DNA from: Escherichia coli
GTDB lineage: Bacteria > Pseudomonadota > Gammaproteobacteria > Enterobacterales > Enterobacteriaceae
NCBI RefSeq assembly: GCF_016026235.1
Contig: NZ_CP065614.1
DNA: 64,000 bases
Direction: 5' to 3' (one strand)
This document shows positions 46,201 to 52,200 of the stretch, one piece after another (position 1 is the stretch's first letter; every line of letters begins with the position of its first letter). The position numbers were made by a program.

Positions 46201-49200
46201 TACAAAGCGGAGGTAATACACCGTAAGAGCTGGAAAAACCGTGCAGAAGTGGAACTGGCCACACTCACGTGGGTGGACTGGTATAACAATCGACGATTGC
46301 TGGAAAGGCTGGGCCATACTCCTCCGGCAGAAGCAGAAAAAGCTTATTATGCTTCCATCGGAAACGATGATCTGGCAGCCTGAGTTCACAGATAAAACAC
46401 TCTCCAGGAAACCCGGGGCGGTTCAGTTTTGTAGTGCACCGTTAATTGCCAGTTCATACCAGATTGTCAGAATGGCTGTAGCTTTACCCGATTCTATGAT
46501 GTATATGAATCCCTGGCAGTCCTGTTAGCATTTGCGGATATTTTTTCCGCTATCTGGGGTAACTGCTCATAGCTGAGTTAAGACAGCATTTATTCATCCA
46601 TCTTGCATGCTCCGTATAATAATTTTTTTACAGATGAAAATTATATCGTATATATTTTAATTATTTGTAGTAAATATTAGATTAAGTATGATTTAATCCA
46701 TGTTGTTTACTTATCATACCCTCTACTAGTTTTTGTAGAACAGAACCGAATACTGCCCTGTGCAGGGAAAATATTATCCAGCGTACAGGAGTTTACTTTT
46801 CTCGGAAATGCATGAAATTTGACAAATATAGAAATCTTATTACAAAATTCATGGAAAAAACTGTGACGTATTTATAAAAAATTGTAAGTCAGTATGTCAT
46901 CATATGTAATGAAATAATATAACCATTGGAATGGAAATGAAATGACGGACAATCATCCTGTTTTACAGGGTGTTGTAATTATAAAAGAGAGTAGGTGGGT
47001 AACAATGGTTGATACAGATCATTACGTACCTTTAAGAACTTTTTACAATATAAAAGTTTTTTTGTGTGATATTATTATGGATAAATTACCTAAAAGTAAA
47101 AGCCTGATGGTTTTTCTTGAAGTCGCCCGTAGTGGTGGGATCATGAATGCTTCAAAAAAACTTAATATCACCCAGCCTACTGTTACCAGAATAATCAGAG
47201 AGCTTGAGAACTATGTAGGAACACCTTTATTCGAGAGAACCTGTTCCGGTGTTTCCCTGAATCAGGCTGGTAATGTTTTTCACGGCAGGGTGTTAAGCTA
47301 TATTAATGGATTGCAAAAATCTATCTCTGAAATCAGAAAGGAGTTTGGAAAGGATAATAAGAAATTCTCATTAGGATATTCATCACTGGTTGGTTATACG
47401 GTCCTTCCTGATGTGATTAATGAGTTTCGGGAACTTAACAGGGATGTATCCATAAGTATTTACGAAGGTCAGTTATCTGATCTGCTTCCCCTTCTTAATA
47501 CTGGTAGACTTGACTGTGCCATCGGAACACTACTTAACGACGAACTGCCTTATGAGTACAGTGCTGAATTGCTTTTCAAAAGCAGTTTCTCTGTATTCAC
47601 ATCAGTACTGAGTCCATACTCGAGGGCAAGAAATTTGCAGGAACTCCAAGAGGCAAAGTGGGTCTTACCGGTAACTTGTTTTGGATATTATAATAACCTT
47701 ACTGAATTTCTTAGAAGAGCAGGAGTGAATATTGATAATGCCATCAGAACAGACTCCATTTCATCAATAATAAACTTGGTTTCCTGTGCTGACTATGTCA
47801 CGGTTCTGGCGAAACCTATGGGTGATGGCAGAAATAAAAAACTGTCTCTGCGGCCAATTCGTATCAAGGAACAATTACCTTCTGCTGATTATTACCTCAC
47901 TTGGAGTAAAAAATATATTCCTTCCAGACTGTTGAGTGAATTTATGCGTATAATAAAAGCACGTTGCTCTGTGAGTGTGTGGGGGGAATAATTAAAGAAA
48001 GCATGCCCTGTCATGCTTTCTTTTCAGTTATTAATGGGTGACGAGGTTAATAAAAATTTGTGCGCCTATCAGCAGACAGTCATCATCAAGGTAGTATGGG
48101 TTTGAATGAAGATAATTATTAATACCTTTCTCCGCGCAACCACTTCCTAGAAAAAACATAGCTCCCTTCCTGTCAGGCACAGCATTAACCATATAGCTGA
48201 AGTCTTCACTAGCGGTCATTGGTTTACAGTGACTGTCAATACGTTGCAGAAAACATGAGGCGCTTTGTATTACTCGCTGAAATGCCTCCTTATGGTTGAC
48301 AACGGCTGGATATCCAGTTGAAACCATTGTTGTTCTGAATCCGCGCAACTTACTTTCAGTTACAATGGATGAGAAATGATTTTTCAGGACTGAATCCGTT
48401 TCTTCGTCCATTGAACGGATGGTTCCTCTGGCCTGAACGTAGTCTGGAACTGCATTGGGTACACTACCGCCATGTATCATTCCGCAGCCAAAGACCGCAG
48501 GGCTGAACGGACTGGTTTTTTTAGCTACAATATAATCAAGATCTGCGATGATTCGTACGGCTTCACGAATAGCATCTAAGCCTTTCTGTGGAGTGGAACC
48601 ATGGGCTGAAACGCCGCCGATATCGAGAGTCCATGCGGCCCCCCAGGAGGACATAATCCCATCATTGATTTTTATAGAGCCAACTTCTATTGAAGCATCA
48701 TTATGAAGGGCGTAAATCTCATCAACGTCGATTACACACCCGCATTCAACCATTTTTTCCGCACCAGGAACGCGCATATCTTCCTCTGCCATCTGGAAGA
48801 TAAACCGGACATTACATTTTAATGCATGCTGGTTTTCGGCCAGAAAACGTGCCGCTGTGAGCGCAATGGCCATGTGTGAATCATGACCACAGTTGTAAGC
48901 CATATTATCATGTACAGAACGGTATTCAGACTCGGTCAGGTCCGGCATTTCCAGTCCATCCATGTCTGCTCTAAAAGCAACTCTTTTTATGTTGTCAGCA
49001 ATATTCAGGTCAGCATGAAAACCGGTAAATCCTGGATACTCAACAACTGAATAACCAAAGGACTGCATCATTTTTTTGCAGTATGCTGATGTTTTATATT
49101 CTTCTCCGGAGGCTTCAGGGATCGTATGGAGATAATGTCGAACTTCTTTACTGAATTTCTCGAGTAGGGATAATTCTTGCGATATTGTATAATCTTTCAT

Positions 49201-52200
49201 AAGCTGTATTAACCTTTAAATAATATTCTGAAACTTCAAGATTAACTGTGCGACAACGGCAGCACCAAAAAATGCGCTAGTAAAAACCACAAGGGATACA
49301 ATAACTATTTTCCAACTGAGTGACTTCAGTTTGTCAATACTGTTCCCAACAGACAGACCGGCAAACGCAAGAAGTGGCGTCGTCGTTGCCAAGAAATCTA
49401 TTTTATTGGTCATACTCATAAATATATGACTAACGGGTGAATAAGGCATGCTCAGTAATAAGGCAATCAGTGTTGCCCAAGCAAACGCAGGAAGTGGAAT
49501 TTTGGGTAACCAAATTTTTATTTGAATTGATGCGATAATAACTAGGAACATTACTGCTGCACCTGGTAGAGCATCCACTACTGACATTCCTTTACCAATA
49601 AACTGTGCCAGCAATACCAGAGCGATACAAGGAATAATTATTTTTGTGTTATCTGAAAATGTTTTAATGTCCATCATATATACCGTGGATTATTTACGAA
49701 GAAGTTTATAGATGAAGTTGCTCAAGGGAAGGGCAAGAAAGATAAGTGCATACATTCCTGTCACGGCTGCCAGCATATTACTCGTGGCCGCAAAGGCGAG
49801 GATCTGACCAGACATCTCGGGTACAGCATTTGATAAAGAAGCTGATGCGGCTGCCATCATGCTGCCGGAACCAAGTCCACATGCGACAGCTAGGGACAGA
49901 GGATGTAATCCAAATGTGAGTCCTACAGGGCTAATAATGCCAAAGAAAACGGTGCCAAGAACGCTTCCGACAATATAAGTTCCAAGTACCCCCGTTCCCT
50001 CTGGGCTATTGATACCATACTTTTCACCAATAACTCCCAGTGATGGTTCCCGTGAAATACTGGAGCAGGCACCAACGGCCTCTCTGCGCATTCCCAATAA
50101 AATAGCGAGCGGCATAGCAATTAATACAGATGCTAAATTACCTAATTCCTGAAGGATTAGCGCTGGCCCGGCCTTGATAACCTCAGAAACATTGGGGCCA
50201 ACCAAGGTGCCGTATTTTACCCCGAGTGGTAATAATGATATCATCACTATGTTTCCGGTTTTTTTAATCGCGTCATGATTAAGTATATTACCCAGTGGTC
50301 TGATATATTTTCCGATTAAATCAGGTGTCACAAGAACACCAATAATAACGGCGTACAACATGGGTAATAGACTAAAGTTGACACCAAGGGCTGAGACCTT
50401 AATAACACCAATGCTTTCTGCTATTACAGTTATAATCCCTGCGGTAACGAATATTACACCTGATGACTTGATTAGCTTTAAAGTTTTCATAAACAGGCTC
50501 ACTTGTTAAATTTGTTTTAAGCCTATCAACAACTATTTGAAAGAATAATTCCTTTTCTTTTTTGGATATACACAACATGTATATCTGAGCGGTTAATATT
50601 GATTCTTATCAAAAAAACACAACAGAGGGTTTCTCATAATATAATGATTAATATGCGATTTTTTTATTGTAGATCTGTATCACAAACTGGGAAGGTACCG
50701 GGTTGTGGAAAACCCGCCCGACGTTTCCTCATGGAATGAACACTGATATGCATCACCTGACAGATGTCGATGGTTCATGATGAACTGCCAAAATATCTGC
50801 TGGCTCCAGAAGTGAGTGCCCTGCTCCATTACGTCCCTGATCTGCGCCGCAAGATGCTGCTGGCCACACTGTGGAACACCGGAGCACGCATTAATGAAGC
50901 ACTGGCGCTGACGCGGGGGGATTTTTCGCTCGCGCCTCCGTATCCGTTTGTGCAGCTTGCGACACTGAAACAACGGACCGAAAAGGCAGCCAGAACGGCA
51001 GGAAGAGCGCCGGCCGGTCAGCAGACTCACCGGCTGGTTCCGCTCTCCGACACCTGGTACGTCAGCCAGCTGCAGACGATGGTGGCAACACTGAAAATCC
51101 CCATGGAACGGCGTAATAAACGAACAGGCAGGACAGAGAAAGCGCGGATCTGGGAAGTGACAGACAGAACGGTCAGGACCTGGATTGGGGAGGCGGTTGC
51201 CGCCGCTGCCGCTGATGGTGTGACGTTCTCTGTCCCGGTCACGCCACATACGTTCCGCCATTCCTATGCGATGCACATGCTGTATGCCGGTATACCGCTG
51301 AAGGTCCTGCAGAGCCTGATGGGGCATAAGTCCATCAGCTCAACAGAGGTCTACACGAAGGTGTTTGCGCTGGATGTGGCTGCACGGCACCGGGTGCAGT
51401 TTTCGATGCCTGAGTCCGATGCGGTGTCTATGCTCAAAAGAATTCCTTAAGCTCTGACTTTTTTAAATCCCTTTCGGATATCTCATGGATATATTATCGG
51501 TATTTCATATTCTGTTGACATGCAGGACTGGTATAGAGTAAAAAAACATCTATTGAGTACCTCTTGGATATCCGAAAGGTGTCTTCGGGGTTCTTTATGG
51601 GTATTACATGTGGATTCTGGAGATACACTATGCCTGTTATTGCTAATACGCATCCCAAAGGTGGTGTGGGTAAGACAACTTCATCCGTAAACATTGTTGG
51701 TGAAATGAAGTCTGATACAGTTGATCTGGATACTCATACCGGGCTTTCTATCATTCTGGGGCTGAGACCTGAAGGAAAAGAAATTTCCGTGAAAGTACCC
51801 AAAACAGTGGATGAGTTAATCGAAATTATGACTCCCTACAAGAACAGCGATAAGACGTTACTTATTGACTGTGGGGGATTTGACTCAGATCTTACCCGTA
51901 CTGCGATTGCCTTTGCAGACTGCGTTATTGTCCCTTCAAAAGACTCCCTGACTGAGCGTATTGGTTTGATGCATTTTGATGGAGTACTGGACGAAATCAG
52001 CTCTATCATGGGGACCGATATAACTGCTCACCTGTATCTCTGTAAAGTTAATCCTAACAAGAAGAAATTCCCTAAGCTTGATGCAATCCTGCCATCATTC
52101 AAACATCTGAAGCTGATGAAGAGCCGCATTTCTGCTCGTGCAGAATTTGAGGATGTCATTGAGACTGGGATGGGAATCACTGAGTCTGTTCATGGGCGCT

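Follow-up and report, generated by a model that had tools for sequence, protein, structure and literature searches.

We analysed a stretch of 64,000 nucleotides (nt) from an Escherichia coli contig (NZ_CP065614.1, assembly GCF_016026235.1), referred to below as the window, and in particular a module of four genes that probably serves the import and cleavage of an amide-linked compound. It consists of a LysR-type regulator, an amidohydrolase of the M20 peptidase family and two hydrophobic membrane proteins (Table 1). In RefSeq these genes carry the names 'TdcA', 'M20 family metallopeptidase', 'hypothetical protein' and 'DUF3100 domain-containing protein', respectively.

The four open reading frames (ORFs) of the original prediction, which was made from the sequence alone, were all found again where it had placed them. 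Its description of the module as low in GC is also borne out: the GC content is 39.5% for the module and 47.4% for the window, and at third codon positions (GC3) the module genes have 34-39%. The neighbours are at 46% (pgtP), 54% (an IS3-family insertion sequence, IS) and 57% (a recombinase fragment, GC3 64%). A divergently transcribed LysR regulator, as originally described, is wrong. The LysR and M20 genes are convergent, their 3' ends facing each other across a 39-bp gap. In comparisons with the orthologues from Serratia, Intestinirhabdus and a genomic island of E. coli, the four genes show non-synonymous divergence (dN) of 0.09-0.30 with saturated synonymous sites (dS) and no internal stops, hence we consider them to be real genes.

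Table 1. Genes and signals of the module (positions in the window)
Feature	Position	Strand	Remark
Putative TdcA-like LysR regulator, ORF	46942-47991	+	ORF listing
Hairpin between the convergent LysR and M20 genes	47987-48032		fills the gap and reaches into both stop codons; read from the sequence and an RNA fold
M20 amidohydrolase, 389 aa	48031-49200	-	ORF listing
Hydrophobic membrane protein, 153 aa (small subunit)	49216-49677	-	ORF listing
Hydrophobic membrane protein, 270 aa (large subunit, DUF3100)	49690-50502	-	ORF listing
Perfect FNR-consensus palindrome, TTGATAAGAATCAA	50599-50612	operon strand	centre 115.5 nt upstream of the DUF3100 ATG

A split DUF3100 transporter and its M20D partner

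The larger membrane protein matches the Pfam family DUF3100 (PF11299) with an E-value of 1.1e-91 over positions 1-234 of the 235 in the model. Since RefSeq annotates 266 aa, its true start is probably the ATG at 50490. For the 153-aa protein neither Pfam nor NCBIfam has a dedicated family, and it matches the DUF3100 model only weakly, in the N-terminal part of the model (E 0.02). There is no NCBIfam model for either membrane protein, neither of them matches the ABG_transport domain (PF03806), and sequence searches of the PDB with each gave no match.

The relation between the two proteins is evident from their longer relatives. The DUF3100 protein was searched exhaustively against 1.84 billion representatives, which returned 400 relatives; among the best 150 of these, 42 have at least 400 aa (nearly all of them 420-490 aa) and carry DUF3100 in their N-terminal part. 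The counterpart of the 153-aa protein is found at residues ~305-440 of two DUF3100 proteins of 438-445 aa (P0123 and P0125; BLASTP, 30-35% identity, E 4e-21 and 2e-23), and with phmmer the small protein matches the C-terminal ends of nearly all of these 42 long sequences (E 5e-24 to 1e-6). A C-terminal domain of ~135 aa that belongs to the single-chain proteins is supplied in trans here by the 153-aa ORF. Given these matches, what had been described as two separate membrane proteins is, as far as sequence comparison can tell, one DUF3100-family transporter in two pieces, which in many other organisms is a single chain of 420-490 aa.

For a census we collected 80 genome loci via the small subunit and 11 further loci from protein or DNA look-ups, called their ORFs and searched these with hidden Markov models and phmmer. 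Stand-alone small homologues of 150-165 aa occur in Enterobacterales, Clostridia, Fusobacteria, Spirochaetes, Desulfobacteria, Enterococcus, Listeria and Paenibacillus, and wherever the locus includes the upstream sequence they lie directly 3' of a DUF3100 gene for 260-300 aa. Of the 80 genome loci, which come from several phyla, 79 have the split, with a partner of this size and a separate start codon for it. The small protein is highly conserved across phyla, its alignment having 32 invariant columns and the motif FPAFAWAT...TTTPLLAFAGLSVGN. Both membrane genes have a dN of ~0.1 against the three enterobacterial orthologues, with synonymous sites saturated, and the gene for the 153-aa protein is the most conserved of the module. 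Hence the split is an old, selected and conserved gene arrangement and not a broken gene. The original prediction had allowed that the membrane ORFs could turn out to be fragments of a known single transporter gene. Single-chain homologues do exist; however, the split is ancient and conserved, and the transporter is not a known one.

Homology and structure predictions had also been proposed for the membrane proteins, and they yielded, besides the fused homologues, a recognisable fold. We concatenated the two window proteins (419 aa) and modelled them by AlphaFold2 with the 42 fused homologues as the alignment. The model has a predicted local distance difference test (pLDDT) value of 90.0 and a predicted template-modelling (TM) score, pTM, of 0.87, with low confidence solely at the junction (residues 265-272). 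It resembles natural single-chain DUF3100 models in AFDB, all of them uncharacterised and archaeal members included, with query-normalised TM-scores of 0.83-0.89. The fold comparison with solved carriers gave 16.6 for the aspartate:alanine antiporter AspT (AAEx, 8y1x), 15.8 for MjNhaP1, 14.9 for PaNhaP, 14.8 for NapA, 13.5 for OadB, 12.9 for NhaA, 12.8 for KefC, 11.1 for SbtA, 10.8 for ASBT and 10.7 each for PIN8 and CitS. A Foldseek search of the PDB with the model returned no significant match, one CitS entry alone reaching a TM-score of 0.48. The predicted model shares the three-dimensional fold of the NhaA-fold/CPA-AT elevator transporter superfamily, which would place the pair in the NhaA/AspT/CitS class of two-domain carriers. 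Such carriers work by an elevator mechanism, and the DUF3100 pair may be expected to do the same. It has no detectable sequence similarity to these carriers (AspT, NhaP/NapA/NhaA, OadB, SbtA, ASBT, PIN, CitS) and differs from them in being divided into chains of 266 and 153 aa, with no TrkA-C or other soluble domain.

Across the DUF3100 family P127, G140, R147, E148, G207 and P255 are invariant, and R136 and S144 nearly so. The motifs GMxREAxGAxxSIxREP and GxGSxSMM, which are signatures of the family, are located in the short helix pairs 137-158 and 197-222 of the model. It is plausible that these pairs are re-entrant or crossover elements, and a substrate with a carboxylate group would fit the conserved arginines. 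When profiles are compared, the small-subunit family weakly resembles the first ~105 residues of DUF3100 (hhalign probability 82%, E 1e-5), compatible with an internal repeat; the same comparison on the fused alignment is also weak (probability 50%, E 1.6e-4), and the middle segment has no detectable repeat.

The coupling of this transporter to an M20 enzyme is close to obligate. In 78 of the 80 loci an M20 gene directly adjoins the DUF3100 pair on the same strand, the order being either DUF3100-small-M20 or M20-DUF3100-small; of the two others, one is cut by a contig end and one is a fused form. Among the loci with the fused form, six of eight have an adjoining M20 gene (L067 and L097 do not). 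The M20 partners belong to a class of ~390 aa and a class of ~420-445 aa, and TIGR01891 was the top or sole family match in all four partners scanned, two per class. Around 86 loci no other conserved catabolic gene recurs. Regulators alone do, and they offer no clue to the substrate: in Enterobacterales these are LysR proteins, and in Clostridia, Fusobacteria and Spirochaetes a protein of ~430 aa that has a GGDEF-like domain and a helix-turn-helix (HTH).

This ~430-aa protein belongs to no NCBIfam family; its GdpP-type GGDEF-like domain is weak (E 1.5e-4) and its HTH is C-terminal. With a span of about 1.3 kb it is found next to the DUF3100-small-M20 trio in loci of Clostridia, Fusobacteria, Spirochaetes and Desulfobacteria ( L016, L017, L021, L024, L036, L040, L042-L043, L045-L046, L048, L051, L053-L054, L056-L057, L059, L062-L063 and L068), and it is probably a dedicated, uncharacterised regulator of the trio. 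In C. difficile a pair of AbgT and M20 genes lies ~1.3 kb from the DUF3100 cassette. A 436-aa Clostridioides enzyme is called 'Peptidase M20 domain-containing protein 2' in UniRef, which is a name-level hint at a beta-alanyl-dipeptidase-like activity.

The M20 enzyme of the window scores 255.3 bits with the TIGR01891 amidohydrolases (cut-off 153.75) and contains the Pfam domains Peptidase_M20 (E 4e-29) and M20_dimer (E 2.5e-13). Its nearest relatives in the PDB are YxeP of B. subtilis (1ysj), HmrA of S. aureus (4ewt) and ILL2 (1xmb), an Arabidopsis hydrolase of indole-3-acetic acid (IAA)-amino acid conjugates, all at E ~1e-37, and the N-acyl-glutamine aminoacylase 6slf. It has in common with these four the two-domain layout and the CGHD, EE, H and H motifs, at an identity of just ~30%. 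Indeed, YxeP and HmrA have the same residues where the window enzyme has C104-G-H106-D, E139-E140, H166 and H365; we take C104, H106, E139/E140, H166 and H365 to be the metal ligands and the general-base glutamate. An M20 protein lacking its metal-binding residues, which would have spoken against the original prediction, is not what the window encodes. As its scores are far under the equivalog cut-offs (CpsA, 223 against 500; DoeB2, 208 against 550), no substrate specificity can be transferred from characterised enzymes. Because the N-terminus is hydrophilic and has no signal peptide, the enzyme is predicted to be cytoplasmic. Proteins at least 90% identical to it are also present in Salmonella enterica and Shigella sonnei records.

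Regulatory signals and the LysR protein

TTGAT-N4-ATCAA is the consensus of FNR, and it emerged on aligning the upstream regions of the cassette, which are otherwise poorly conserved. Serratia, Intestinirhabdus and C. youngae each have a perfect box 119-126 nt upstream of the DUF3100 gene; in Citrobacter MGH106 and in the E. coli island a single base departs from the consensus. The E. albertii box is perfect too, but there an IS1 copy parts it from the gene. In total, the predicted box is kept in position across seven enterobacterial versions. In the window the consensus is matched twice (0.18 matches expected), and the sole other perfect box (TTGATTATTATCAA, 32315-32328) is upstream of the F4-like fae fimbrial cluster region. 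A TGTGA half-site farther upstream is also common to the compared regions. Given the conservation of the box upstream of the operon, anaerobic, FNR-dependent induction is our best inference.

The LysR protein scores 448.8 bits with NCBIfam NF007667, the TdcA equivalog (cut-off 308). In exceeding this cut-off it resembles TdcA, the LysR-type activator at the head of the E. coli operon tdcABCDEFG, which serves threonine/serine degradation and is induced anaerobically. It differs from TdcA in being a plasmid or island paralogue without tdcB or tdcC beside it, and in facing a transporter-hydrolase operon convergently. No tdc genes at all lie beside it, its neighbours being the M20 gene and the IS3-family element, and its identity among the cassette orthologues is just 61-65%. 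In our opinion it is best called a TdcA-like LysR paralogue, and the name 'tdcA' given to it in RefSeq (WP_250114709.1, a 349-aa product) is probably an over-annotation, as there is no tdc operon nearby. The first 45 residues of this product are not conserved in any orthologue and look like an annotation artefact; the match to NF007667 begins at residue 42 of the ORF. Since Serratia, Intestinirhabdus and the E. coli island have homologues of 304 aa, and since DNA homology to Serratia stops at 47076, the true start is probably the ATG at 47077, for a product of the same 304 aa.

In the classical LysR divergon the regulator is divergent from its target promoter, whereas here it is convergent. 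It likewise lies downstream of the M20 gene and convergent to it in Serratia, Intestinirhabdus and the E. coli island. The Citrobacter and E. albertii versions alone have an upstream, divergent regulator, which is a more distant LysR protein.

The hairpin between the convergent genes has its core at 47994-48023, AAAGAAAGCATG-CCCTGT-CATGCTTTCTTT. Its RNA folds with -17 kcal/mol, compared to -5.9 +/- 2.2 for shuffled sequences (z = -5.1), none of 200 shuffles being as stable, and it is probably a bidirectional intrinsic terminator. A terminator consensus scan missed it because the T-run sits inside the stem; matches in that scan and in one for sigma-70 promoters were at chance level. A scan of 45-52 kb with Rfam found no riboswitch or small RNA, just the frameshift pseudoknot of the IS element described below.

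Plasmid setting and mobility

The best-matching plasmid, NZ_CP065612.1 (IncFIA/FIC), carries ospC1, ospC4, ospD3, an F4-like fae operon and pgtABCP around the module, hence the window is a segment of an invasion plasmid (pINV-like) of enteroinvasive E. coli (EIEC). The module is rare in this form: it is 99-100% identical in only 11 PLSDB plasmids, and it was found in 7 of 5426 complete E. coli genomes, on plasmids every time.

That the module was acquired independently of its surroundings, as originally suggested, is supported by its lower GC content than the flanks, by differing insertion sites and by homology limited to the four genes. The DNA homology to Serratia (~71%) is confined to 47076-50442. 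GC is below the flanks in every host (Serratia, 41% in the module and 49% beside it; Citrobacter, 47% and 55%), the Intestinirhabdus module having 50% with a left flank of 56% and a right flank of 45%. The insertion site is between glpD and glpR in Serratia and between yajR and cyoE in E. albertii, is flanked by an integrase and IS elements in the E. coli island, and on the plasmid is between the IS3-family element and a truncated recombinase gene. The cassette seems to be decaying in some strains, since its DUF3100 gene is disrupted in two versions: in the E. albertii chromosome (locus L095, 5530-6227) the IS1 copy that separates the gene from the FNR box also truncates its 5' end, and in Citrobacter MGH106 (locus L013) the gene is split into two ORFs.

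Several neighbouring features help to delimit the island. At 46439-46657 there is ~70% similarity to a region, annotated as 'hypothetical protein', that thousands of IncF plasmids from E. coli, Klebsiella and Salmonella share, which would mark plasmid backbone between the IS element and the island; as such sequence reaches ~46.66 kb, the island spans roughly 46.7-50.7 kb. A 228-aa ORF that resembles a tyrosine recombinase abuts it at 50764-51450 (GC 57%, GC3 64%). This ORF is absent from the PLSDB table of coding sequences for the near-identical plasmid, possibly having been annotated as a pseudogene. The IS3-family element (45184-46430) contains a strong ALIL programmed-frameshift pseudoknot (RF01497, 45465-45581, 119 bits) and is probably defective, because its transposase frame is broken into three ORFs. 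Relative to NZ_CP065612.1, an IS1 copy at 42170-42937 (768 bp, with the 9-bp target duplication CGGAGGTTG) interrupts pgtC, thus this copy of the plasmid-borne phosphoglycerate transport regulatory locus probably does not function. A further insertion relative to that plasmid (2.6 kb, 17555-20131) has ORFs of 513 and 249 aa, whose sizes suggest an IS21-like istA/istB pair.

Proposed function, alternatives and comparison with known systems

The reading that we prefer is that the cassette imports and cleaves an amide-linked compound by means of a two-subunit DUF3100 carrier and an M20D enzyme under the control of FNR and LysR, and we would give it a probability of about 0.65. Comparative genomics supports the compact uptake-and-hydrolysis unit of the original prediction, with the difference that the regulator is convergent and that the membrane proteins form one transporter. 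The cassette would be a self-contained, horizontally mobile unit for nutrient scavenging. Its DUF3100 protein (266/270 aa) and the 153-aa protein would assemble into a single secondary transporter and import an amide compound bearing a carboxylate, with an N-acyl-L-amino acid or an atypical dipeptide as the likeliest candidates. Encoded directly downstream, the cytoplasmic M20D enzyme would split the imported compound into an amino acid and an acid, both of which would enter general metabolism. Expression would probably be switched on anaerobically via the conserved FNR box and tuned by the TdcA-like LysR protein. The analysis itself establishes the genes and their integrity, the relation of the two chains to fused proteins, the similarity in predicted fold, the near-obligate M20D neighbour, the metal-ligand motifs, the FNR box and an island-like distribution. 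The assembly of the subunits, the direction of transport, the elevator mechanism, the class of substrate and the roles of FNR and LysR are what we infer.

Three other explanations are, in our opinion, weaker. The DUF3100 transporter might be an exporter or antiporter of ions or metabolites, with the M20D enzyme either making the exported product or being only loosely related to it in function. This is unlikely, since near-obligate adjacency on the same strand to a cytoplasmic hydrolase, in many phyla, is the signature of substrate delivery; importers (CitS, ASBT, SbtA) are found in the same fold class, and no biosynthetic genes are conserved nearby. A unit for detoxification or resistance, by which a toxic peptide-like antimetabolite would be brought into the cell and destroyed or peptides related to the cell wall would be modified, as has been suggested for HmrA, seems to us decidedly improbable. 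HmrA is indeed among the nearest solved relatives of the M20 enzyme, and the module is carried on plasmids and genomic islands; however, it would be unusual for resistance to work by import and then hydrolysis, the cassette is a universal chromosomal feature of species such as C. difficile, and the FNR box suggests metabolic regulation. A pseudogene on a decaying plasmid, in which a frameshift or stop would have cut one transporter gene into the two membrane ORFs, we reject as highly improbable in spite of the single-chain homologues and the abundance of IS elements and broken genes (such as pgtC) on the plasmid, since the same split recurs across phyla, the small protein combines invariant columns with low dN, and no uninterrupted fused gene differing by a single indel was seen among the enterobacterial homologues.

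Preferring uptake and hydrolysis, we may put the hypothesis in wider terms, for which we would offer even odds. DUF3100 and its unannotated ~150-aa partner would represent elevator-type secondary transporters of a family not described before, with one or two polypeptides, dedicated to supplying M20D enzymes and spread across Bacteria and, as listed in AFDB, Archaea. In Enterobacterales it would have become part of a mobile, FNR-controlled island of 4 kb, giving gut pathogens such as EIEC anaerobic access to acyl-amino acids or atypical dipeptides from the host, the diet or the microbiota.

The searchable full-text literature holds nothing on DUF3100 or PF11299, and nothing on EIEC or pINV together with phosphoglycerate. 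The relation of split and fused forms, the fold class, the near-obligate coupling to M20D and the FNR box are absent from it, while the locus itself is already in RefSeq under generic names. What the analysis adds is a concrete model, a two-subunit carrier of the NhaA/AspT/CitS class working with an M20D hydrolase, in place of a domain of unknown function and an unannotated hypothetical protein. The family is widespread, in C. difficile, enterococci, Fusobacteria and plasmids of Salmonella, E. coli and Shigella, and appears never to have been studied. The identity of the substrate would give a function to a seemingly large family (400 clusters at 50% identity) and could point to a nutrient of the gut on which pathogens draw under anaerobic conditions, such as an N-acyl amino acid or a beta- or gamma-amino-acyl dipeptide. 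Further, the EIEC invasion plasmid carries an intact and selected metabolic island beside a pgt locus that is inactivated in this copy.

Among the closest known systems is abgRABT of E. coli, which consists of the AbgT transporter, the M20D-type p-aminobenzoyl-glutamate hydrolase AbgA/AbgB and the LysR regulator AbgR. The logic is the same: a secondary transporter imports an amide-linked conjugate of an amino acid, a cytoplasmic hydrolase of the TIGR01891 type cleaves it, and a LysR regulator is encoded alongside. The cassette of the window differs in that its transporter is of an unrelated family, as seen from the missing ABG_transport match, and is made of two polypeptides, and in that it has one hydrolase gene instead of two.

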